This document shows positions 7-37,514 of a stretch of DNA of 64,000 nt, in pieces. Both the position numbers and the translations under genes were made by a program. The DNA is from a virus. How positions within the stretch are numbered: the stretch's first letter is position 1; every line of letters starts with the position of its first letter. Under the pieces are notes generated by a model. It searched no databases. It was not told where the DNA came from and worked only from the letters and a program-made list of their open reading frames with translations. Location: IMG/VR virus record IMGVR_UViG_3300032224_001146, positions 1 to 64,000 of that record; one strand, written 5' to 3'.

Positions 7-288
7 TTATTCCTCATAGTATTCGTCATCTTGACACCATGCTTCTAAGTGGTGACTTTCAATAATTGCCCATGCAGGAGCATAAGTTTCACCACGCCAA
101 CTTACGCCTTCAGGTAATTCAATTTTGCGTTCTTGACTATCTTCCCAGTATGCATCAATAGCATCAATACATGGTTGCACCATTGAAAGTGGAACGGGTG
201 GATAATGATTAGAACGCAATTGTATTGCAATTGAACTTTCTAAATCTAAATTCATTGTAGCAAGATCAGTGGAGAGATTATTACCCAT
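7..288 (-). CDS. hypothetical early-region phage protein (93 aa)
   Basis: ORF track; AGGT RBS; tightly packed with neighbours. Confidence 0.75.
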   Translation of the reverse strand: MGNNLSTDLATMNLDLESSIAIQLRSNHYPPVPLSMVQPCIDAIDAYWEDSQERKIELPEGVSWRGETYAPAWAIIESHHLEAWCQDDEYYEE

Positions 289-290
289 TA

Positions 291-476
291 TTATTTACCT
301 ACCTTTGTGTTGTAATTAATTGCGTCATAGAATCGGGTGACATCGAAGTTAGAATTATCTTTGCCAAACATTACTGCAAACTCTCTCGCTAAGTATCCAT
401 ACACTGCGGGGTGAGTTTTATCCTGCACACTAGCAAGAATTTCAGCGGTTGAAATATAATCTTTACGGCTCATCAT
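291..476 (-). CDS. small phage protein, paralog of 2438..2617
   Basis: MMSRKDYISTAEIL...EFAVMFGKDNSNFDVTRF aligns by eye with MMTRKDYVNTAEIL...EFASMFSADNERFDFEKF. Confidence 0.8.
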   Translation of the reverse strand: MMSRKDYISTAEILASVQDKTHPAVYGYLAREFAVMFGKDNSNFDVTRFYDAINYNTKVGK

Positions 477-688
477 TTTTCTACAACCTTTCTTCCTTCA
501 CGATAAAATATTTTGGTATAGCATTTACCTGACGGCGTGTAGAGATTAACAGTAGAATATTTATCTGCGAATCCCCAGTCAATAAACTTTGCAAACTCTT
601 TATGAGCCTGCAATTCATCTGAGTATTGGAAAGAATAATCAGGGGTTTTATTCTCATCATAGGTTACAGTAATTTTATAGTTAGTCAT
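473..688 (-). CDS. hypothetical protein (71 aa)
   Basis: ORF track; overlapping start/stop with neighbours. Confidence 0.7.
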   Translation of the reverse strand: MTNYKITVTYDENKTPDYSFQYSDELQAHKEFAKFIDWGFADKYSTVNLYTPSGKCYTKIFYREGRKVVEK

Positions 689-905
689 TATCTACACCTA
701 CCCACATTGTTGCCCAAAAATCTGAACCCCAAGTAGAAATTTTTTCAGGGTTGTAAGTAGGGCGAACCTTTATTTTATAGCAGAAAGAATTATCTTCATC
801 TAACTGAGAATAACGCTCTGCGTATTGGATAATTCCATCACGATTTTTTCTAGCGAGGGAACGGCTACGATAGTATTTGCCTTCTAAGGCTTGTGAGATT
901 AGCAT
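681..905 (-). CDS. hypothetical protein, likely distant paralog of 1606..1806
   Basis: shared pattern L-x-GK-x-Y-x-S...G-x-II-x-AE...Y-x-[IV]-x-[IV]-x-P; GAAGG RBS. Confidence 0.7.
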   Translation of the reverse strand: MLISQALEGKYYRSRSLARKNRDGIIQYAERYSQLDEDNSFCYKIKVRPTYNPEKISTWGSDFWATMWVGVDND

Positions 906-1027
906 TATTTGCTACCTTCTTTCTTTGTTGTGTTATTGGACATTGTAGCAGATAGGACTGACATCGCCTTTTCTGCATTAGCCTTGCGTGTCGCAAGGAC
1001 TAGGGCTTTATACTCATCTAATTTCAT
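905..1027 (-). CDS. microprotein MKLDEYKALVLATRKANAEKAMSVLSATMSNNTTKKEGSK (40 aa), contains an internal promoter
   Basis: translated by hand; AGAAAGG RBS; TAATG coupling to next gene. Confidence 0.6.
   Translation of the reverse strand: MKLDEYKALVLATRKANAEKAMSVLSATMSNNTTKKEGSK
942..964 (-). promoter_or_regulatory. PafBC/RecA-NDp-type promoter 1
   Basis: minus strand ATGTCAG-TCCTATCTGC-TACAAT. Confidence 0.7.
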
Positions 1028-1042
1028 TATTAGACCTTTCTA

Positions 1043-1198
1043 CTAGAGGCAATTTATGCAATTGCAAGATTTAGAACGGATAAGGTAACGGAATAACTCT
1101 AAGCGAGTTTCCTTATCTAATCCATAAGAGGATTTTACTCCGCCGTTATGGAAATCATGAACGATAGTAGAGAATAGAGTTTCATTTAGTGTAGTCAT
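1043..1198 (-). CDS. microprotein (51 aa) ending in CxCxxC
   Basis: MTTLNETLFSTIVHDFHNGG...SCNCINCL; AGAAAGGTGG RBS; directly downstream of promoter 2. Confidence 0.65.
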   Translation of the reverse strand: MTTLNETLFSTIVHDFHNGGVKSSYGLDKETRLELFRYLIRSKSCNCINCL

Positions 1199-1250
1199 TT
1201 GAGACCACCTTTCTTTTTAGCGAGAGTTTCTCGCTTTCTTTATACCTGAA

Positions 1251-1273
1251 ATTATAGCAGGGGGGTCTGACAT
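1251..1273 (-). promoter_or_regulatory. PafBC/RecA-NDp-type promoter 2
   Basis: ATGTCAG-ACCCCCCTGC-TATAAT. Confidence 0.75.
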
Positions 1274-1311
1274 CTACTGACCAGTAATGCCTCAAATCGG
1301 ACATTTTGTAT

Positions 1312-1327
1312 TGTGATTAAAATCACA
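1312..1327. promoter_or_regulatory. CRP/GlxR-family binding site
   Basis: perfect TGTGA-TTAAAA-TCACA. Confidence 0.75.
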
Positions 1328-1353
1328 CGACCAATTCACGCTCAAAAATCCCA

Positions 1354-1369
1354 TGTGTTTAACATCACA
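1354..1369. promoter_or_regulatory. CRP/GlxR-family site (1 mismatch)
   Basis: TGTGT-TTAACA-TCACA. Confidence 0.55.
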
Positions 1370-1377
1370 CCCTTAAG

Positions 1378-1436
1378 CGACACGCCCGAGCCCGCTTCTT
1401 TTGCGGGCCAGCTTGATTTTGTCAAGCCGACACGCC
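1378..1436. promoter_or_regulatory. two CGACACGCC (WhiA-type GACAC) boxes flanking a CCCGC-N7-GCGGG dyad and a minus-strand TTGACA
   Basis: CGACACGCC at 1378-1386 and 1428-1436; dyad 1391-1407; tgtcaa 1420-1425. Confidence 0.6.
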
Positions 1437-1437
1437 G

Positions 1438-1602
1438 TTACATTCCTAAAATATATTCCATCGGATCTTCATCGGCGGGAATGCAAGAACAGGTTTCAAC
1501 ATCAAAATTATTATCATTACCAAAGAAAATAAATCCTGCACCATTGCATTCATCACATTCAATTCCAATAACATTTTTTAATTCATCTAAAATGTTTCCC
1601 AT
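1438..1602 (-). CDS. small Zn-binding protein (54 aa, CxxCxG...CxC)
   Basis: MGNILDELKNVIGIECDECNGAGFIFFGNDNNFDVETCSC...; AGGAG RBS. Confidence 0.65.
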   Translation of the reverse strand: MGNILDELKNVIGIECDECNGAGFIFFGNDNNFDVETCSCIPADEDPMEYILGM

Positions 1603-1605
1603 TTT

Positions 1606-1806
1606 TTATTCTCCTGTCTTTACTGCTAAATAGCGGTAAGTATTTTTTCCAAAATTGCGTGGAGAGATTTCCACTAGATAAGTATCTGATTCAGAATACC
1701 AGACATCATTATTTTTTTCGGCTGAAATAATTTCACCCGTTACAGAACCAGAATAATAAGTTTTTCCCACTAGGAGACTTTCTACTGTATAAGTATTAGC
1801 CGACAT
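1606..1806 (-). CDS. hypothetical protein (66 aa)
   Basis: ORF track; AAGGAGG RBS. Confidence 0.75.
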   Translation of the reverse strand: MSANTYTVESLLVGKTYYSGSVTGEIISAEKNNDVWYSESDTYLVEISPRNFGKNTYRYLAVKTGE

Positions 1807-1949
1807 TAGTTAGCCTCCTTAGTAGTAAATAAAGCACCTTCTTGAAATAAACCAATTTCAAGGTCTAGCATTTCATTTGGAGTGGCTTCGGATAAATCTA
1901 CCCAACCAGCACCATTTTCATTCATTCTAAAAATTTCAATGTAACCCAT
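1806..1949 (-). CDS. acidic microprotein (47 aa)
   Basis: MGYIEIFRMNENGAGWVDLSEATPNEMLDLEIGLFQEGALFTTKEAN; GGGAG RBS; TAATG coupling. Confidence 0.65.
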   Translation of the reverse strand: MGYIEIFRMNENGAGWVDLSEATPNEMLDLEIGLFQEGALFTTKEAN

Positions 1950-1954
1950 TATGA

Positions 1955-2164
1955 TTACTCCCAACTTCTAGTAGTAGCAATTACTACACGCTTACTAGGC
2001 ACATAGTTTTCTAATTCAACTAAATTAGTTTCAAGGATAATTCCACCTTTAGCAACTAAGTAGTCAAGATGCGAATTAGCATCTAATTCTGTGTTACAGA
2101 GAACACCTAAGCAAGTTCCGAATTCTTTTTCGGAGTATTGAACTTTATACGATAATTTGAACAT
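1955..2164 (-). CDS. hypothetical protein (69 aa)
   Basis: ORF track; AGAAAGGA RBS downstream of promoter 3. Confidence 0.7.
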   Translation of the reverse strand: MFKLSYKVQYSEKEFGTCLGVLCNTELDANSHLDYLVAKGGIILETNLVELENYVPSKRVVIATTRSWE

Positions 2165-2214
2165 TTAAGTTCCTTTCTAGTTTGAGAACCTTTCTCAACT
2201 TTCTTTATACTAGA

Positions 2215-2237
2215 AGTATAACAGAGACCACTGACAT
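2215..2237 (-). promoter_or_regulatory. PafBC/RecA-NDp-type promoter 3
   Basis: ATGTCAGTG-GTCTCTGT-TATACT (full TGTCRgtg-N8-TAnnnT match). Confidence 0.75.
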
Positions 2238-2253
2238 TTTGACCCGTTTTTCG

Positions 2254-2290
2254 GGCGTGTCGGAAATCTTTTTTTGTGATTTACGCCACA
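2254..2290. promoter_or_regulatory. GACAC box plus CRP-type site upstream of promoter 3
   Basis: GGCGTGTCG 2254-2262; TGTGA-TTTACG-CCACA 2275-2290. Confidence 0.65.
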
Positions 2291-2330
2291 TCCAGGGAAT
2301 TAGATAAATTCGGACATAAGAGACAAATCG

Positions 2331-2377
2331 CCCGCAAAAGATACGGGCAGCATCGCCTTTTGTCAAGGCGACACGCC
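2331..2377 (-). promoter_or_regulatory. sigmaA-type promoter with adjacent GACAC box and a dyad over the -10
   Basis: minus strand GGCGTGTCG-CC-TTGACA-N17-TATCTT; CCCG...CGGG dyad 2331-2347. Confidence 0.55.
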
Positions 2378-2379
2378 GT

Positions 2380-2451
2380 TTATTCTAAAATATCTTTTAA
2401 AAGCTTTTCGATGTCTTCTAAAATTTCTTCTAGATCTTTATCGGTCCCCAT
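2380..2451 (-). CDS. possible 23-aa acidic amphipathic peptide
   Basis: MGTDKDLEEILEDIEKLLKDILE; GAGG upstream; very short. Confidence 0.4.
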   Translation of the reverse strand: MGTDKDLEEILEDIEKLLKDILE

Positions 2452-2617
2452 TTAGGCAGGCCTCTCTAAACTTTTCGAAATCAAATCTTTCGTTATCTGC
2501 AGAGAACATGCTAGCAAATTCATCCACGAGGTCTTCAAATAAAAATTCGTCAGCTATGAGGTCCCTATACGAAGAAAGAATCTCAGCGGTGTTAACGTAG
2601 TCTTTACGTGTCATCAT
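2438..2617 (-). CDS. small phage protein (59 aa), paralog of 291..476
   Basis: hand translation MMTRKDYVNTAEILSSYRDLIADEFLFEDLVDEFASMFSADNERFDFEKFREACLNGDR. Confidence 0.8.
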   Translation of the reverse strand: MMTRKDYVNTAEILSSYRDLIADEFLFEDLVDEFASMFSADNERFDFEKFREACLNGDR

Positions 2618-2727
2618 TAGTTAAGTCCGCCATTCTTTAGGTCTTTTATCATGAGCACTACTAGTGGGACGGTTACCCCTACTAGGGCCAATTGTACTAG
2701 GCTAGTTAGTATACGGTTAACAGTCAT
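2617..2727 (-). CDS. single-TM membrane microprotein (36 aa)
   Basis: MTVNRILTSLVQLALVGVTVPLVVLMIKDLKNGGLN; GGAG RBS; TAATG coupling on both sides. Confidence 0.6.
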   Translation of the reverse strand: MTVNRILTSLVQLALVGVTVPLVVLMIKDLKNGGLN

Positions 2728-2819
2728 TATTCACACTCTCCACAATAACACTTGCCCAATTCTTTATTATTGCATTCCTCTTTAGTTAGGGAAGGCTCCC
2801 ATTTATTCATTGTATCCAT
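2727..2819 (-). CDS. Cys-containing microprotein (30 aa)
   Basis: MDTMNKWEPSLTKEECNNKELGKCYCGECE; fills the gap exactly. Confidence 0.45.
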   Translation of the reverse strand: MDTMNKWEPSLTKEECNNKELGKCYCGECE

Positions 2820-2972
2820 TTACTTACGCTTCTTTCTCTTGCGTAGTACTAATACGGCTACTACTAGGGCGGTTACGATAAATGTACGCCATGGTAGATA
2901 GACATCTCCCATGTATGAGGTAAAGTCCATGCCCCAATTAGTAAACTGTATGTGTAATAGATTAAGTTCCAT
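2820..2972 (-). CDS. membrane microprotein with polybasic C-tail (50 aa)
   Basis: ...PWRTFIVTALVVAVLVLRKRKKRK; AGGA RBS. Confidence 0.6.
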   Translation of the reverse strand: MELNLLHIQFTNWGMDFTSYMGDVYLPWRTFIVTALVVAVLVLRKRKKRK

Positions 2973-2992
2973 TTTATTTATTTCCTATTCTT

Positions 2993-3202
2993 TTAGTTGT
3001 TAAACATTGCTAGTAGTTCATCCACTTGCTTATCGCTTAAGTGGTCTATTTGTATTGCGTTAGCAAAACCGAAGATGTCCTCTTCTGTAGGGTCTACCTC
3101 TACCTCTTCATCTAGGTAGATGTATGCGTCAGCGATGTCTGACTGTATAGTCTCCCACTTATTAGCAGGGCGGTTATTGAAAGAGTTGTATGTGTATGAC
3201 AT
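2993..3202 (-). CDS. acidic hypothetical protein (69 aa)
   Basis: ORF track; AAAGGA RBS. Confidence 0.7.
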   Translation of the reverse strand: MSYTYNSFNNRPANKWETIQSDIADAYIYLDEEVEVDPTEEDIFGFANAIQIDHLSDKQVDELLAMFNN

Positions 3203-3242
3203 TGAATTAATTTCCTTTTCTTTTAGTTAATTGTTGAGAGTT

Positions 3243-3283
3243 TTATTTGCTAGGCTCACCTTTCGGATTATTTGCTAGGCTCA
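3243..3283. repeat. 16-bp tandem direct repeat (TTATTTGCTAGGCTCA x2) in the 5' leader of 2993..3202
   Basis: exact copies 3243-3258 and 3268-3283 separated by CCTTTCGGA. Confidence 0.85.
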
Positions 3284-3317
3284 AACTCTTTTATTCTTAT
3301 TTAATTGTTATAGTAGA

Positions 3318-3340
3318 ATACTACCATAGGGGTCTGACAT
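3318..3340 (-). promoter_or_regulatory. PafBC/RecA-NDp-type promoter 4
   Basis: ATGTCAG-ACCCCTATGG-TAGTAT. Confidence 0.7.
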
Positions 3341-3367
3341 TTACCCCCATTTTAGGGGGTGTGTTTA

Positions 3368-3383
3368 TGTGATTTATCTCACA
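3368..3383. promoter_or_regulatory. CRP/GlxR-family binding site
   Basis: perfect TGTGA-TTTATC-TCACA. Confidence 0.75.
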
Positions 3384-3577
3384 CGATTAGCGAAGACCCA
3401 CTTACTCTCATTAGGAGAGAGGTAGCGGTGAGAGACAAGACCCTCTGAGGCTACCATAGCAACATACGCCATACGGCTAATGTAGTTACCATTAGCAAGG
3501 CGGAACACATTATTATCCTTAGTGTTAGAGGATGACATAGAGTGATTTGGCTCTACTACTACTGTTAGTGAATTCAT
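3374..3577 (-). CDS. hypothetical protein (67 aa), first gene of the leftward array
   Basis: ORF track; AGAAAGGA RBS. Confidence 0.7.
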   Translation of the reverse strand: MNSLTVVVEPNHSMSSSNTKDNNVFRLANGNYISRMAYVAMVASEGLVSHRYLSPNESKWVFANRVR

Positions 3578-3624
3578 TGTGAATTCCTTTCTTTATTGAC
3601 ACCTTGTCAATTTCTTATAGTGTA

Positions 3625-3647
3625 ACTATAACACACCCCACTGACAT
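3625..3647 (-). promoter_or_regulatory. PafBC/RecA-NDp-type promoter 5
   Basis: ATGTCAGTG-GGGTGTGT-TATAGT (full TGTCRgtg-N8-TAnnnT match). Confidence 0.75.
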
Positions 3648-3663
3648 TTTCAAGTTGAAACAC

Positions 3664-3690
3664 GGCGTGTCGCATGTGATTTACGCCACA
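3664..3690. promoter_or_regulatory. GACAC box plus CRP-type site upstream of promoter 5
   Basis: GGCGTGTCG 3664-3672; TGTGATTTACGCCACA 3675-3690, identical to 2275-2290. Confidence 0.65.
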
Positions 3691-3735: not shown

Positions 3736-3822
3736 CTCGTATCATGCATCATAAAAATATATTAACATTTTGTGAAATCTGAATTCCTAGTCAACCAGAA
3801 CATAATATGATATTATATACAC

Positions 3823-3933
3823 ATGCCATCACACAGAATAGTAAAATGCGAAGTATGTGGGCGGGAACTAGAAGTAAGATCTGGTTTTGCTCATAAGACA
3901 CTATACAATCATATGAAAGAACATAAGTTATAA
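3823..3933 (+). CDS. C2H2-type zinc-finger microprotein (36 aa), leaderless
   Basis: MPSHRIVKCEVCGRELEVRSGFAHKTLYNHMKEHKL; TG-A-TATTAT 6 nt upstream of ATG. Confidence 0.65.
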   Translation: MPSHRIVKCEVCGRELEVRSGFAHKTLYNHMKEHKL

Positions 3934-3940
3934 TTAAGCT

Positions 3941-4018
3941 ATGAATCTATTACAAGCTGCAATCATCTTTGGTCCTATGATCATATTAACTATTATATGG
4001 TGGGACGATATTAAGTGA
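3941..4018 (+). CDS. single-TM microprotein (25 aa), leaderless
   Basis: MNLLQAAIIFGPMIILTIIWWDDIK; TATAAT 6 nt upstream; GTGA overlap with next gene. Confidence 0.5.
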   Translation: MNLLQAAIIFGPMIILTIIWWDDIK

Positions 4019-4308
4019 TTAATGACAAATTCATTACTGAATTTGCTACAGCATTAAAATCAGCTAAATATGAACACAAGAGCTATTACCTATCTGATGA
4101 GAACCTTGCTGAAGCAATGCTAGAGCACACTGTAAAATTGCTAGAAGGCTATCTGAGACGTTGTGAGAATGTCTCTGAGGGTAACTGTACAATCTGGTGG
4201 AAACATGAAGAATGCTTGACCCTACAGGGTATTCTTTTTGATATGACAGGAAATGAAAAGTATATGCGGGGATCCATGCATCAAGAAAGAATGTGGATAA
4301 GAAGATAA
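4015..4308 (+). CDS. hypothetical protein (97 aa)
   Basis: ORF track; C..C..H..C motif. Confidence 0.6.
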   Translation: MINDKFITEFATALKSAKYEHKSYYLSDENLAEAMLEHTVKLLEGYLRRCENVSEGNCTIWWKHEECLTLQGILFDMTGNEKYMRGSMHQERMWIRR

Positions 4309-4310
4309 TA

Positions 4311-4328
4311 ATTCTAGTCAACTAGAAT
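4311..4328. promoter_or_regulatory. palindromic operator-like site (best copy of a repeated motif)
   Basis: ATTCTAGT-CA-ACTAGAAT; variants at 3787, 4445, 6470, 7399, 7436. Confidence 0.55.
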
Positions 4329-4344
4329 ATTTGTGTAAATAAAC

Positions 4345-4380
4345 GAAAATCCCTTCGGAGGCGGATCCTAGGGGATTTTC
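4345..4380. terminator. probable bidirectional intrinsic terminator at a convergent junction
   Basis: GAAAATCCC...GGGATTTTC stem with T-rich flanks. Confidence 0.6.
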
Positions 4381-4423
4381 TAATGTAAGGGAGAATGGTG
4401 GTTCTCAACCATACACTACTATA

Positions 4424-4452
4424 AGAATAACATAAGTGTAATTTCTAGTCAA
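4424..4452 (-). promoter_or_regulatory. sigmaA-type promoter firing into the 4340-4417 non-coding segment
   Basis: TTGACT-N17 (ending TGT)-TATTCT. Confidence 0.5.
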
Positions 4453-6406: not shown

Positions 6407-6490
6407 TGGCAAAACCTCCTTTAGAGACAGTGAATATAATCTTAACATTGATAGAACAACCCTGTCAAGTCAGTCAACTAGAAAGTAATC

Positions 6491-14168: not shown

Positions 14169-15316
14169 TGGCAAAGAACAGAGTCAAGAATGTAATTGCT
14201 TCAAGATTAAAAGCTTTACTTTCTATAACAGAGACATTTAATAGATCAGATACTTCTTTATTAACTACAGCTGGATCAACTTCTGCAAAATGGGATTCGG
14301 TCAGAGGTTCCTGGGGAATTTCTTCTAATAAAGCTTCTTCATCAACTTCCGCATCTTCTTATCCAATTTCAACTTTAACATTTTCAAAAGAAGATGTTAC
14401 TATTTCTGTTGATGGAATTACTCCAGGAGTAGGAACAGCTTTTTGGGTAACCGATTCAGGCAATTGGTGGGGCACATATGTTGATGGAACACAATCCTGT
14501 CAAACTTGTGCTTCTGGAGGAAACTGTGCTTCTTATTATTCTTGTTGCCAAGGAACAATGAATTCAAGTAATCCATATAATTATGCATGTTGTACTGGTA
14601 ACTATAATCAAGGATATACTGATTCTGGAACAAATCCAGCTACATGCCCAGGAGGATTTGCTTATGACGCTTGTCCATGCGGAACATACAATCAAGGTTA
14701 TACAGCGGGATATTACGTTTGGTATACATGTGGTGGTTCAGGAAACGCTGCTCCAGCTTCTTCATGCGGATTGACATTTGCCCAAGCACAATCATGCGGC
14801 GGATGCAAAAGAAATAGTCAACCTTATTATAATCAAGGAAATTGTACCTGTTCTGGTTCATCATATTGTGTTGGTGGGTATGTTGCAGGAACTCCTTATA
14901 GTCAATGGGTAGCTGGAACCTGCAATCAAAATGGTACATGTACAGCTTGGAATACTTCAAATTGTAATTCTAATTATGCAGCAAACTGTTGTGGGGCATA
15001 TAATGCAACAACTTATTATGATTGCAATTGTGTAACAAATAATAGTATTAAATTAATTAAATCTATTGCTGGTACAATTTCAACAGTTGCAACATTTGCT
15101 TTAAGCTCAACAGTTGCAGGATTTAAAACAATTTTAAACGGTAGCACAGTTACAGTGCAAGCTTATTCTGGATCTGGATATACATCTCAAATAGGATCAG
15201 ATCAATTTTCAACAGTTTCTGGATATTCAAAAACTAAAAAACATGGTATACTAAAAGCTCCAACAACATATGCGGCATCACAAGGATCGGCAATAGACGA
15301 ATTTAAGGTTGTATAA
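14168..15316 (+). CDS. putative receptor-binding protein with a 24-Cys insertion
   Basis: beta-rich N/C halves flanking about 185 aa Cys/Gly/Tyr-rich segment. Confidence 0.7.
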   Translation: MAKNRVKNVIASRLKALLSITETFNRSDTSLLTTAGSTSAKWDSVRGSWGISSNKASSSTSASSYPISTLTFSKEDVTISVDGITPGVGTAFWVTDSGNWWGTYVDGTQSCQTCASGGNCASYYSCCQGTMNSSNPYNYACCTGNYNQGYTDSGTNPATCPGGFAYDACPCGTYNQGYTAGYYVWYTCGGSGNAAPASSCGLTFAQAQSCGGCKRNSQPYYNQGNCTCSGSSYCVGGYVAGTPYSQWVAGTCNQNGTCTAWNTSNCNSNYAANCCGAYNATTYYDCNCVTNNSIKLIKSIAGTISTVATFALSSTVAGFKTILNGSTVTVQAYSGSGYTSQIGSDQFSTVSGYSKTKKHGILKAPTTYAASQGSAIDEFKVV

Positions 15317-27583: not shown

Positions 27584-29227
27584 ATGTTTAGCGTTCCTCT
27601 TAACCCAAAGTTAAAAGAAAATCAATTAAACGAATTTATAGTATTCTTAAAAGAATACAAATCGTTTATTTATGATTTTTATTTTACCTGCAGAGTTGAA
27701 CCATTTACTCAAGATGCCATGGGAGATGTTTTTCAAGGCGGAAAAGAAGATCACGAGTACCTTGTCTCCCTTGCCCTTTATATTCAAAATGAAACTGGAG
27801 TAACTGCTTCAGCAGTATTTAATAATATTGAGGTAAGACCATCGCAGCAGAACCTTGATTTATTTATAGAGTCTTTTAGGCCAGTATATGAATCTGGAAT
27901 TAGATCAGCAACAATTCCCCACACACACTGGATGGCAACAGGACAAATCAAAAAAGCTTTTCCAGAGTTATTTGTAAAAAATACTATCCTTCGAAATGTA
28001 TCAGAACCAAGAGATATAGAAAAATTGGCAAAAGCTGGATTTGATTATATTAACCTTGACCGTGATCTTATGAGGGATCATGAAAAACTAAAAAGATTTA
28101 AAAAGGCTAAACAACAATTTGGAGTAAAGCTATCTTTGCTAGCAAATGAAAGTTGTTATGGCGGATGTATTATGATGGATGAACATTATCAGTTTAATAA
28201 TACCCGCACAGATGGGCCTCAATATTTTAATGATCCAATAAGCCGTGTATCTTGCCCAAAATGGGACCATGAGGATTTTGCGGTATCATTGAAAACAGCT
28301 AATTTTCCGCCCTGGCGTGAAGATTGGCAGGAGTTTATTGATGACCTTGGGATTGATGTTATTAAAATGCATGGGAGGGAGTCCCATACAAGGCTTAAAG
28401 AAACTATGGATATAATCAGGAGGTATGCCAATAATGAAGAAATTCTATTTGACAGCTTTAATGATTTTATTGAAGAAACTAATATGGTTGATAAGCCGAT
28501 TACCATCTGGCGTAATAAGATCAAGAATTGTAAATTTGATTGCTGGGATTGTGGCTATTGCGACAAAATAATGGCTGCTAAATATGGCAACCATATTAAT
28601 CCAAAAGTTGCTATGGTTGCACAAGAGTTGGTTAATTCTGTAAATGCACCAATTGAAATTAATATTCCTGGGTTAACATCAACTAGAGTTCAATCTTTAA
28701 TTAATGGATTAGCAAAAAATTCATCTAAATATTTAGAAATTGGTTCTTATCAAGGTGCTACAGCAGCTAGTGCTTTATTGGGAAATAATCTATCAGCGTA
28801 CTTTGTAGATACGTGGCAGGAAGCCCCACAAGCAGTTAGAGATGGTTGGGAGACACCAATCACTAATACACTAGAAGAATTTAAAAATAATATTAAGCCT
28901 TACACGGGTAATAATAAAATATTTATATCTAACTCTGATATGTTTAAAGTTAATGTTTCTAAGATTTCAGACGTTGATCTTTTCTTTTATGATGGCCCTC
29001 ATGATTTTGAGTCCACAAAAAATGCGGTCAAGTATTACTCACCTTCATTTGCTAATCAATCTATTTTAATATTTGATGATGCAAATTGGACGGAAGTTGT
29101 GCAGGGTGCCCATAAGGGAATAGTTGAATCTGGATTAACAATATTGTATAGTAAGAAGATATTAAATAGCTTAGAATCCGACACCGACTGGTGGAATGGA
29201 CTTTATATAGTAGTTGTGGAAAAGTAA
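27584..29227 (+). CDS. peptidase U32-family (Fe-S hydroxylase-like) domain fused to class I SAM methyltransferase (Methyltransf_24-like)
   Basis: INLDRDL, LLANESCYGGC, SC, IKMHGRE, CKFDCWDCGYC; then YLEIGSYQGAT, VDTW, FYDGPH, IFDDANW. Confidence 0.75.
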   Translation: MFSVPLNPKLKENQLNEFIVFLKEYKSFIYDFYFTCRVEPFTQDAMGDVFQGGKEDHEYLVSLALYIQNETGVTASAVFNNIEVRPSQQNLDLFIESFRPVYESGIRSATIPHTHWMATGQIKKAFPELFVKNTILRNVSEPRDIEKLAKAGFDYINLDRDLMRDHEKLKRFKKAKQQFGVKLSLLANESCYGGCIMMDEHYQFNNTRTDGPQYFNDPISRVSCPKWDHEDFAVSLKTANFPPWREDWQEFIDDLGIDVIKMHGRESHTRLKETMDIIRRYANNEEILFDSFNDFIEETNMVDKPITIWRNKIKNCKFDCWDCGYCDKIMAAKYGNHINPKVAMVAQELVNSVNAPIEINIPGLTSTRVQSLINGLAKNSSKYLEIGSYQGATAASALLGNNLSAYFVDTWQEAPQAVRDGWETPITNTLEEFKNNIKPYTGNNKIFISNSDMFKVNVSKISDVDLFFYDGPHDFESTKNAVKYYSPSFANQSILIFDDANWTEVVQGAHKGIVESGLTILYSKKILNSLESDTDWWNGLYIVVVEK

Positions 29228-35225: not shown

Positions 35226-37514
35226 ATGGCTTACAAACAGTATGGAAATGTTCTTAATACCTTAAATATTAAACAAAAAAATATATTTAACTGGAATTTA
35301 AATTATTATGATAAATATGGAAGAATTAATTTTAACTCACAAAGCTCTCACACATATATTACAAGATCTTTATCTGTAGCAACTTCATCTGGAACTTTGC
35401 AGGGATATCTTCCATCCATAAAAAATATTGATTATAATACAGCATCCACAATTTTAAGAAATTCTGGTTTTACACCTTCGCCAACATATATTTATACAAA
35501 CAATACTGCATTTCAAACATATAATGCATTAGGTGGTTATGTTACGACACAGTCACCAGCACCTTCAGCATCTTCTGGACAACTTGTGCAATTTGGTAGT
35601 TCCATTCAAATGGATGTAATTTTATACACATCTGTTCCAATTGTAACTACAACTGTTCCAAATGCTCCATTATGGTCTAACGCAACATCTGGAGATTCTT
35701 CAGTCACTCTAACATTTGTGGCACCAGCAAACGGTGGTTCAGCTATAACTAGATATGAATATTCAATTACAAATGGTGCTACATGGATTTCTGTAGGATT
35801 GCCAACAAATAGTACATTTACTGTTTCAGGACTTGTAAATAATGTTGCATATACTTTTTATATTAGAGCAGTAAACTCAATTGGCAATTCAGCATCAAGT
35901 GCTGGTGTAACTAAATCTCCAACTGCAGGTTCTATTGGTGGAACTGTAACAACTCCAGGTGCTCCTACATTTACAACATCATTCGTTACAAATACATCAT
36001 TTAGAATCACACTCACAGCTCCATCAAATAATGGTGGTGCTGAAATTACAAGATATCAACATTCATTAGATAACGGTTTGACATGGACAAATGATTTTAC
36101 AAATACTGGACCAATTACAGTTTCTGCACTTAACCCAGGACAAACATATCAAGTTTCTTTACGTGCAGTAAACTCAGCTGGTAGTGGTGCGGCAGCAGCA
36201 ACACAATCCTTGACTACAACACAAATCGTTCCAGATCTAGTAGGACTTGCACTTAATACAGCAAAAACAGTTATTACGTCTTCTGGATATGTTTTTGGAA
36301 CTGGAACAGAAAGTGCATCTAATAACCAATATTATTTAGATTATTCTGGTGGACTTGTAAGTGCACAATCTCCAACAGCAGGAGGGTCTTTATCTGGTGG
36401 AGGAACCATTAGACTTGACTACACAGTTTATTTGGCTGCACCTTCATATGGAACAATTCCAAATGTAATTGGACTTAATTATTCTGAAGCTATTACAAGA
36501 ATTCAGCAAGCAGGTTATTCAAATATTACACAAGTTACAACATCTGATATTAACAAAACTTATGGGCAAATTTATGCACAAAACCCAGCAGCAGGAACAG
36601 CATCATTGGTTAACCAGGTAGTTACAATAACCTATTCAAACTATACTGGATCATTAGCCATTCCAACAAATACAGTTGCTCCAAGTGTTACTGGAGATAA
36701 TCTATATGTTGGAGCTAAATTTAATGTTGTTCCAGGAACTTGGACAGATAGTCCAACATCATATAATTATCAATGGGTTGATTCAAATGGAAACAATTTT
36801 ATCAATGCTACGTCATCAAGTTACATCGCTAATTCAACTGCAATTTCTAGATCAATTGGAATAAAGTTAGCAGCAACAAATGCAGCTGGTACATCTTCGT
36901 ATGTAACTTCTTCAAACTTTTTAGGACCAATTAAAATTCTTCAAAAGCCAACAGATATTCAGTACGCAGCAACAAACCCAAGATCAGCTACATCAATATC
37001 AGTTACTTGGTCTGGAGGAGATTCTCCATTTTACTTTGTTGGTATATATAAACCAGGGACATCATCTTACGTATCAACCAAAATTGTAACAACTCAATCA
37101 ACAACATTTACTGGTTTAACTGCAGCAAATAATTATTATATTCAGATATTTGGAAACAATAATAATGAATATACAGCTGATTCATATACAAGTGCAGTTT
37201 TATCAACAACATTTTCTGCACAGCCTTTTATTCCAGTTTTAAATACAGCAGCTAAATCTGGAAATAATATTAATTTTACTGCAACTCGTGGAGCAAATAA
37301 TGCAAAAGTTAGAGTTCAATTAGAAAATACAGGCGGCGGATTAGTTGCTGGTACAACCTACCAAGATTTTGGTTTAGATTTAACACAATCATCAATATCA
37401 AGTTCATTTAATATTAATGGTATTTCTTCTGGATCTTATAAGATAGTTGCATATGGATACAATGAAGATTATGGAATATCTGCATCTGGCTCTTCCTTGG
37501 ATATTACGATATAA
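35226..37514 (+). CDS. PASTA + fibronectin type III multidomain protein
   Basis: VPDLVGL..A......G...V.AQSP.AG and IPNVIGL..A...QNPAAG (PASTA); APANGGSAITRYEYS...YIRAVNSIG (FN3). Confidence 0.8.
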   Translation: MAYKQYGNVLNTLNIKQKNIFNWNLNYYDKYGRINFNSQSSHTYITRSLSVATSSGTLQGYLPSIKNIDYNTASTILRNSGFTPSPTYIYTNNTAFQTYNALGGYVTTQSPAPSASSGQLVQFGSSIQMDVILYTSVPIVTTTVPNAPLWSNATSGDSSVTLTFVAPANGGSAITRYEYSITNGATWISVGLPTNSTFTVSGLVNNVAYTFYIRAVNSIGNSASSAGVTKSPTAGSIGGTVTTPGAPTFTTSFVTNTSFRITLTAPSNNGGAEITRYQHSLDNGLTWTNDFTNTGPITVSALNPGQTYQVSLRAVNSAGSGAAAATQSLTTTQIVPDLVGLALNTAKTVITSSGYVFGTGTESASNNQYYLDYSGGLVSAQSPTAGGSLSGGGTIRLDYTVYLAAPSYGTIPNVIGLNYSEAITRIQQAGYSNITQVTTSDINKTYGQIYAQNPAAGTASLVNQVVTITYSNYTGSLAIPTNTVAPSVTGDNLYVGAKFNVVPGTWTDSPTSYNYQWVDSNGNNFINATSSSYIANSTAISRSIGIKLAATNAAGTSSYVTSSNFLGPIKILQKPTDIQYAATNPRSATSISVTWSGGDSPFYFVGIYKPGTSSYVSTKIVTTQSTTFTGLTAANNYYIQIFGNNNNEYTADSYTSAVLSTTFSAQPFIPVLNTAAKSGNNINFTATRGANNAKVRVQLENTGGGLVAGTTYQDFGLDLTQSSISSSFNINGISSGSYKIVAYGYNEDYGISASGSSLDITI

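Follow-up and report, generated by a model that had tools for sequence, protein, structure and literature searches.

The stretch of virus DNA analyzed here, which we call the window, comprises bases 1-64000 of the 87,193-nucleotide (nt) IMG/VR virus record IMGVR_UViG_3300032224_001146, which is classed as linear and 69% complete. At its start lies a block of small genes on the minus strand (7..3577), in which 16 open reading frames (ORFs) of 30 to 93 amino acids (aa) stand under five promoters and which runs past the start of the record. These promoters, which carry the core sequence and spacing of those activated in actinobacteria by PafBC, are our subject. An earlier note, made from the sequence alone, had reported five minus-strand copies of ATGTCAG-N10-TAnnnT, each with an extended -10 TG, a spacer of its own, and a ribosome-binding site (RBS) and small ORF downstream, two of them in a longer form, and all of this held up. 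The pattern ATGTCAGN10TANNNT has five matches in the window, every one on the minus strand (942-964, 1251-1273, 2215-2237, 3318-3340, and 3625-3647). TGn stands directly 5' of the -10 hexamer in 5/5 sites, the 10-nt spacers are all different, the form TGTCAGTG occurs in two (2215-2237 and 3625-3647), and downstream of each site an AAGG/GAAAGG-type RBS is followed by an ATG 36 to 115 nt away. Dinucleotide-preserving shuffles (n = 100) gave a mean of 0.35 matches and a maximum of 3, with 0/100 reaching five, and the rest of the record added no copies (forward 0, reverse 5; reversed-pattern control, 0/0).

Promoter 1 (3625..3647, minus strand, as are the other sites in this paragraph) consists of ATGTCAG, the 10 nt TGGGGTGTGT, and TATAGT preceded by TGn, with a -35-like TTGAAA at 3648-3653, 17 nt from the -10 hexamer; it serves ORF 3374-3577, whose ATG follows the -10 element by 47 nt. 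Promoter 2 (3318..3340) joins ATGTCAG to TAGTAT through ACCCCTATGG, matches the -35 consensus at just 2/6 positions, and heads an operon in which a structured leader, with 115 nt between -10 and ATG, precedes ORFs 2993-3202, 2820-2972, 2727-2819, 2617-2727, and 2438-2617; a terminator-like hairpin with a T run (2329..2349) marks its end. Promoter 3 (2215..2237) reads ATGTCAGTG, GTCTCTGT, and TATACT, an exact match to TGTCRGTG-N8-TAnnnT, and serves ORFs 1955-2164 (50-nt gap), 1806-1964, 1606-1806, and 1438-1602. Promoter 4 (1251..1273; ATGTCAG, ACCCCCCTGC, TATAAT) serves ORFs 1043-1198 (52-nt gap) and 905-1027. The latter, of 40 aa, contains promoter 5 (942..964; ATGTCAG, TCCTATCTGC, TACAAT), the other four sites being intergenic. 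Promoter 5 serves ORFs 681-905 (36-nt gap), 473-688, 291-476, and 7-288, after which transcription would pass the start of the record, and its site has a near-identical counterpart in the relatives G003 and G001 described below. We infer that transcription would start about 7 nt after the -10 hexamers, near 3618, 3311, 2208, 1244, and 935. A relaxed match (TGTCGG...) at 1784..1805, overlapping the start codon of ORF 1606-1806, was rejected as a sixth promoter; in relatives it recurs as coding sequence of the same protein N terminus and is probably a coding coincidence.

To place these sites in their lineage, we used 11 related IMG/VR loci found through the neighboring glycosyltransferase (69 to 98% identity), five of which (G001 to G005) were scanned whole with TGTCRG-N10-TANNNT. 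Such a scan against controls, suggested in the earlier note, revealed clear enrichment. The 109-kb record G001 (93% complete) has 11 minus-strand and 2 forward matches, the former at 100-109 kb; G002 (106 kb, 99% complete) has 18 minus and 1 forward, 17 of the minus ones in the first 10 kb; G003 (41.7 kb, 38% complete) and G004 (24.1 kb, 21% complete) have 8 and 16 minus-strand matches; and G005 (24.9 kb, 21% complete), a fragment without the block, has 0. Reversed-pattern controls gave 0 to 2 per record, and in 200 Markov simulations the count for G002 averaged 1.6 and never exceeded 6, as against the 19 sites observed. The copies in relatives are co-oriented, number 8 to 18 per block-bearing record, and lie in the same small-gene block. 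The spacing is equally constrained: at 10 nt, five records yielded 6, 18, 11, 16, and 8 minus-strand matches, as against 0 to 2 at each spacing of 6 to 9 or 11 to 14 nt.

The association also held when sites were chosen independently of TGTC, as early-strand TGnTAnnnT with an RBS and start codon within 90 nt. Of the 41 sites so defined, 34 are preceded at exactly 10 nt by TGTCAG or TGTCGG, and AGTCAG, which keeps GTC, is found at one of the seven others. A search of IMG/VR with the strict 22-nt form found at least 120 stretches, many with several co-oriented copies, as against 13 single matches for the reversed pattern; 59 of the 80 matching loci examined further have at least four relaxed matches on one strand, and clusters were also present in two records whose portals are only 49 to 51% identical to that of the window. 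Outside the early block, a conserved PafBC-type site precedes a 224-aa gene in G002 (80509-80530, plus strand) and G001 (67709-67730, plus strand); the homologous promoter near position 71643 of the window's record has kept TTGAAT and an extended -10 and lost TGTCAG.

A logo built from 65 nonredundant lineage sites extends this picture. The base before TGTC is A or T in 64/65, position 5 is A in 51 and G in 14, and position 6 is T in 48, and the two positions after it are G or C (TGG in 27 sites, ACC in 10, TCC in 7); TGTCRGTG is found in 35/65. A G at -14 is present in 54/65 sites. Positions 27 and 28, which lie 6 to 7 nt past the -10 at the expected start site, are enriched in C and A, as they are in the host sites described below. 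The information content at the -35 position does not exceed 0.43 bit, and a GAAAGG-type RBS with a start codon follows 61 of 69 lineage sites.

These features are those of a known class of bacterial promoter. The geometry given in the earlier note proved correct: the in vivo PafBC motif is reported as a 22-nt tGTCgg(N10)tA(N3)T, in which tA(N3)T is the SigA -10 element (PMC8635444). The helix-turn-helix of PafB is described as reading GTC at -23 to -28, with no -35 consensus, and PafBC as sitting between SigA region 4 and the DNA, an arrangement termed sigma adaptation (PMC8635444). Single-stranded DNA bound to the WYL domains is reported to activate PafBC (PMC11804915). RecA-NDp promoters are said to precede damage genes in Actinomycetales, including Streptomyces (PMC5087735), and PafBC-dependent promoters are described from Mycobacterium, Streptomyces, and other actinobacteria (PMC8635444, PMC11804915, PMC6789036, PMC5087735). 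Judged by sequence, the phage motif is the published PafBC consensus in core and register. The -26 element is present as TGTCAG in 5/5 window sites, the exact 10-nt distance from TGTCRG, with its GTC core, to TAnnnT holds in five records, and TGTCRGTG occurs in 2/5 window sites. The likeness includes the C/A enrichment 6 to 7 nt past the -10, seen also in the host sites described below. With respect to a -35 element the sites are divided: 4/5 in the window match TTGACA at only 1 to 3 of 6 positions, as against TTGAAA at promoter 1, and in the lineage about half have a -35-like hexamer. Unlike the known PafBC promoters, those of the window and its relatives belong to a lytic-type phage and stand in groups of 5 to 18 before small orphan genes instead of repair genes. 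Their extended -10 matches the consensus, and CRP-type palindromes in phase and CGACACGC boxes lie upstream of many.

If the motif is read by a protein of the PafBC type, the phage does not appear to bring its own. A WYL domain, which the earlier note had suggested looking for, was found in none of five phage records (0/5), nor was a PafB-like protein or HTH_PafC; the records searched include the 93% and 99% complete ones. Sigma70_r2 was absent from 7/7 records, in which no search was aimed at a phage-type RNA polymerase. No DNA-binding family was detected among the small early proteins encoded in the block or its upstream operon, either in the 20 compared with Pfam or in the 10 compared with PHROGs.

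Two lines of evidence, WhiB in relatives and kinship to Streptomyces phages, make an actinobacterial host plausible. WhiB, which has been used as an actinophage marker (PMC10202952, PMC10914622), is encoded in 2/2 near-complete relatives, with E values of about 1e-13 and scores above the Pfam cutoff; the window's own record, 69% complete, contains none. The window, which has a G+C content of 36.5% (36 to 38% in related uncultured phages), codes for a portal, a prohead protease, tail and fiber proteins, and a PASTA/FN3 protein, and the presence of PASTA domains is consistent with a Gram-positive host. At 35226-37514 and 27584-29227 lie a tail-region protein with two PASTA and FN3 domains and another protein that combines an unassigned N-terminal part with Methyltransf_24. 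The top matches of the portal and major capsid proteins are BE-cluster phages of Streptomyces (Stanwilliamsviridae), at 55 to 60% identity; for the portal, 127 of 331 matching records are Streptomyces phages, and for the capsid protein, 127 of 230. Besides this identity, the window has in common with BE-cluster phages such as BillNye, Coruscant, Mildred21, TunaTartare, and Annadreamy the order of transglycosylase (minus strand), glycosyltransferase (plus), and ribonucleotide reductase (plus) genes, as seen in BillNye. It differs from them in its motif enrichment, and their DNA shows no likeness to the window's small-gene block. Isolated "Ca. Nanopelagicales" phages were ruled out as the same lineage, being described as 39 kb in size with a sigma factor of their own (PMC10202952).

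For the host side, we took the family of a 1.3-Mb Actinomycetota metagenome-assembled genome (MAG), G006, as a plausibility test. WYL domains occur in 26/26 genomes of this family, mostly as tandem pairs. In one genome, the pair comprises a PafB-like gene (PDB 6sj9, E value of 1.6e-40; Mycobacterium smegmatis chain 7p5x_AY, E value of 7.9e-35) that has kept the RMFERDK recognition helix and, beside it, a PafC gene with HTH_PafC (Pfam E value of 5.6e-31), WYL, and WCX domains; in a second family (G007), HTH_PafC was found in 15/15 genomes. The exact motif, mostly as TGTCAGTGG, lies upstream of recA on the same strand in 8/23 genomes of the G006 family. The form TGTCRGTG-N8-TANNNT has 150 matches in 61 genomes, as against 48 for the reversed control (summed by hand; 4 lie on a phage-like contig), and 4 of 10 downstream genes scanned belong to DNA metabolism (recA, dnaN, a DEDDh exonuclease, and a PD-(D/E)XK nuclease). 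Host sites read TGTCAG in 24/33 and then prefer TGG, as in the phage. At eight host-family sites, in small genomes of freshwater actinobacteria (L072, L074, L075, L078, L080, L081, L086, and L090), the start codon of an ORF of 60 to 73 aa lies exactly 6 nt after the -10; these ORFs are likely leaderless damage-induced small proteins, and the one scanned in Pfam showed no family. Clusters of the phage motif were also seen on short contigs of G006, G007, and G008 (such as G008:C6, G008:C57, G008:C106, G006:C195, and G007:C102), public MAGs whose labels include Bacteroidia, Actinomycetota, and Acidimicrobiaceae; these contigs belong to the phage lineage and are contamination of the bins.

With respect to the genes served by the motif, the 12 of the 16 block ORFs scanned showed no Pfam family. 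In tblastn searches against 99 related loci, 16/16 found matches (in 2 to 47 loci each), five of them in 40 to 47 loci at 35 to 100% identity, which marks the block ORFs as real genes. Among 20 window ORFs compared with Pfam, just DUF6171 and a zinc ribbon were recognized, and ten small proteins yielded three families of unknown function in PHROGs; the G002 block also contains DUF932, GP88, and DUF1281_C proteins. Several leaders (3590-3615, 2180-2205, 1215-1240, and 3236-3290) have in common TATAA(A)GAAAG, a short hairpin, and then a AAAGAAAGG RBS, and the long leader of promoter 2 has a tandem GAGCCTAGCAAATAA repeat that is present too in the relatives G004 and L019.

Upstream of the promoters we observed two further elements. 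Palindromes of the CRP type (TGTGR-N6-TCACA) precede 4/5 window promoters (1312-1327, 3368-3383, 2275-2290, and 3675-3690) and 36 of 66 promoters in the lineage, where the distances from their centers to TGTC cluster at 26, 36, 46, and 56 nt, that is, at whole helical turns; this phasing looks like the class I activator layout of a host CRP/GlxR-type protein. Boxes of the form CGACACGC lie upstream of 22/66 lineage promoters and, in the window, within 985-3672 (e.g., 3663-3670 and 2253-2260); in 13 cases the start of the forward form is exactly 26 nt ahead of TGTC, while the inverted form, GCGTGTCG, lies some 17 nt ahead of it.

Beyond the block, three TTGACTAG elements (3794, 4321, and 4452, minus strand), partly within short inverted repeats, surround a set of plus-strand ORFs (3823-4308) that includes a 36-aa zinc ribbon and a 97-aa ORF and lies between the PafBC-type block and an operon with a canonical promoter; the region 3794-4452 looks like a control region. 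The operon, which runs from 6448 to 4453, is headed by a canonical-class promoter at 6439..6468 (minus strand; TTGACA, 18 nt, TAAGAT with TG); it is the transglycosylase operon and encodes small conserved proteins, several of them rich in Cys, to which no function is assigned. Outside the block, the genome has canonical TTGACA-N17/18-TATAAT promoters, of which the one before the transglycosylase operon recurs at position 14413 of G002. The phage thus has two promoter classes, with the -26 type marking one class of genes.

It is nearly certain that the five sites are promoters of one conserved class, and the block that they serve probably comprises early, host-takeover-type genes. We propose, with moderate confidence, a model in which the SigA RNA polymerase of the host would read these promoters with host PafBC bound to the -26 element. 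In each site, the -26 element (A/T)TGTCRG, with its GTC core, is followed after exactly 10 nt by an extended -10 (TGnTAnAAT). Under the model, host PafBC, a heterodimer activated by single-stranded DNA, would bind at TGTCAG and take its place between the DNA and region 4 of SigA, and the host's alarm for single-stranded DNA would control or enhance expression of the block. A mixed mode, in which the promoters fire at a basal level with SigA and are boosted when PafBC is active, seems likely. Triggers of PafBC during infection are speculative and might include resected phage ends, host DNA breakdown, or sunlight damage; that the incoming phage DNA is itself the trigger is likewise speculation.

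A number of observations weigh against this model, several of which point to the main rival, that the SigA holoenzyme acts alone by way of an extended -10 and a partial -35. In that case, TGTCRG would serve to tune RNA polymerase as part of the spacer, or act as operator for a phage or host repressor that shuts the whole block off at a later stage of infection. TGn precedes the -10 in 44/65 phage sites, including 5/5 in the window, as against a TG in 1/33 host sites, and the phage hexamers are near consensus (TATAAT in 23 and TACAAT in 14 of 65), whereas those of the host are weak. Promoters with an extended -10 can dispense with a -35 element or an activator. A -35-like hexamer (at least 4/6 of TTGACA, at 17 or 18 nt) is present in 34/65 sites, as compared with 0 to 5 at most other offsets, and promoter 1 has its TTGAAA although the published PafBC class is described without a -35. 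With near-consensus extended -10 elements and partial -35 elements, the promoters may fire without PafBC, and host PafBC-type sites lack these features. That phage early promoters are commonly silenced together would fit a shutoff operator. A generic sigma-70 scan, however, passes only promoter 1 (3653-3625, TTGAAA-17-TATAGT), the five as a set not qualifying as canonical promoters, and the poor -35 matches of the other four speak against SigA alone. TGTCRG was recovered in 34 of the 41 sites that had been chosen without it and never lies at 9 or 11 nt in early blocks, a register tighter than is usual for operators; it is also identical to the site of an actinobacterial activator that is coupled to RNA polymerase. 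We consider this explanation possible, if unlikely.

More doubtful, in our assessment, is that a phage protein unrelated to WYL proteins or PafBC reads TGTCRG and recruits or remodels the SigA polymerase in the manner of MotA/AsiA, in which case the block would be "middle" rather than early. Such a factor might be injected or be a product of the operon with the canonical promoter (6448 to 4453). In its favor, 76 of the 80 IMG/VR loci examined share proteins with G000 or G002 and so belong to one broad lineage, a near confinement that leaves room for a lineage-specific phage factor and counts against the PafBC model. Moreover, five cultured Streptomyces BE phages, whose hosts have PafBC, are not enriched in the motif (0 to 3 matches, as against 2 to 5 for the control); the motif is therefore no family trait of Stanwilliamsviridae, and kinship to them does not predict it. 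The TTGACA-18-TAAGAT promoter heading an upstream operon of conserved small proteins, several Cys-rich, would suit a source of the factor. Against this idea stand the absence of WYL, PafB-like, HTH_PafC, and sigma genes from five to seven records and of a DNA-binding family from the small early proteins scanned. Furthermore, an unrelated protein would have to copy by chance the host PafB site, the 10-nt register, and the TGTCAGTGG preference. Finally, that the five matches are chance or functionless remnants of a duplicated segment is negligibly probable: a short degenerate motif in an AT-rich genome invites the thought, but no shuffle reached five, 65 nonredundant sites keep the core despite differing spacers and flanks, all copies lie on a single strand with an RBS and ORF after each, and IMG/VR holds at least 120 stretches as against 13 for the reversed pattern.

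The host side of the PafBC model has weak points of its own. The portal search found eight relatives in MAGs labeled Bacteroidia, Cytophagaceae, Luteolibacter, Bacteroidetes, Flavobacterium, Actinomycetota, Acidimicrobiaceae, and Gammaproteobacteria; we rejected such bins as evidence of the host, the many phyla indicating misbinning rather than a host signal. In 26 small actinobacterial genomes, raw TGTCRG-N10-TANNNT matches are not above the reversed control, the enrichment being confined to the TGTCRGTG form. The earlier note had suggested a check of predicted hosts for pafBC, and a PafB/PafC pair was indeed found in one genome of the G006 family, though that family is just an example of a possible host. 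Its reading that the early genes are driven by PafBC stands, then, in part: the sequence and spacing match and an actinobacterial host is plausible, while the extended -10 boxes, which host sites lack, and the -35-like hexamers suggest that the promoters might do without PafBC.

Other phages offer partial parallels. T4 middle promoters are described as combining a MotA box at -30 with a sigma-70 -10 element, read by "sigma appropriation" through MotA/AsiA (PMC8635444). As in T4, we have here a set of phage promoters whose upstream box stands in for the -35, and, in our proposal, a protein would bridge sigma region 4 and the DNA. Unlike in T4, where the bridging proteins are phage encoded and remodel region 4, no phage candidate was found here, and the box is the site of a host activator. 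The host-takeover early blocks of SPO1, T5, and other large virulent phages are terminal and contain many tiny orphan genes and many close promoters, which the host RNA polymerase reads and which are of the ordinary -35/-10 sigma-A or sigma-70 type. The window resembles them in its terminal block of tiny orphan genes and closely spaced promoters and differs in the -26 element class. The literature on PafBC, RecA-NDp, and "sigma adaptation" with phages, judged at the level of abstracts, yielded no description of PafBC-type promoters on a phage, in agreement with the earlier note, which knew of none. WYL regulators such as PafBC are known as sensors through which the host registers DNA damage and, as is increasingly recognized, phage attack. 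A 2025 study by Rafique et al. (ACS Infect Dis; cited in PMC12848934) reportedly concerns pafBC and mycobacteriophage resistance and may bear on a link between PafBC and phages.

Taken to its furthest, the PafBC model suggests that an abundant lineage of lake phages has wired its takeover block to the host's single-stranded DNA alarm. PafBC, tripped by infection or sunlight damage, would then switch on up to 18 promoters per genome and draw the PafBC-polymerase away from host repair and defense genes. We offer this wider picture tentatively and think it, as a whole, unlikely. Short, portable promoters and a conserved PafB recognition helix would allow the idea to be tested in culturable actinobacteria that have PafBC. 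If true, this would be the first virus to exploit "sigma adaptation" and the first phage to use a host WYL sensor, normally in control of defense, as an ignition key. The host's alarm would become the trigger for infection, and there would be a testable link between DNA damage, such as that caused by ultraviolet light in surface waters, and the success of phages in abundant freshwater actinobacteria.

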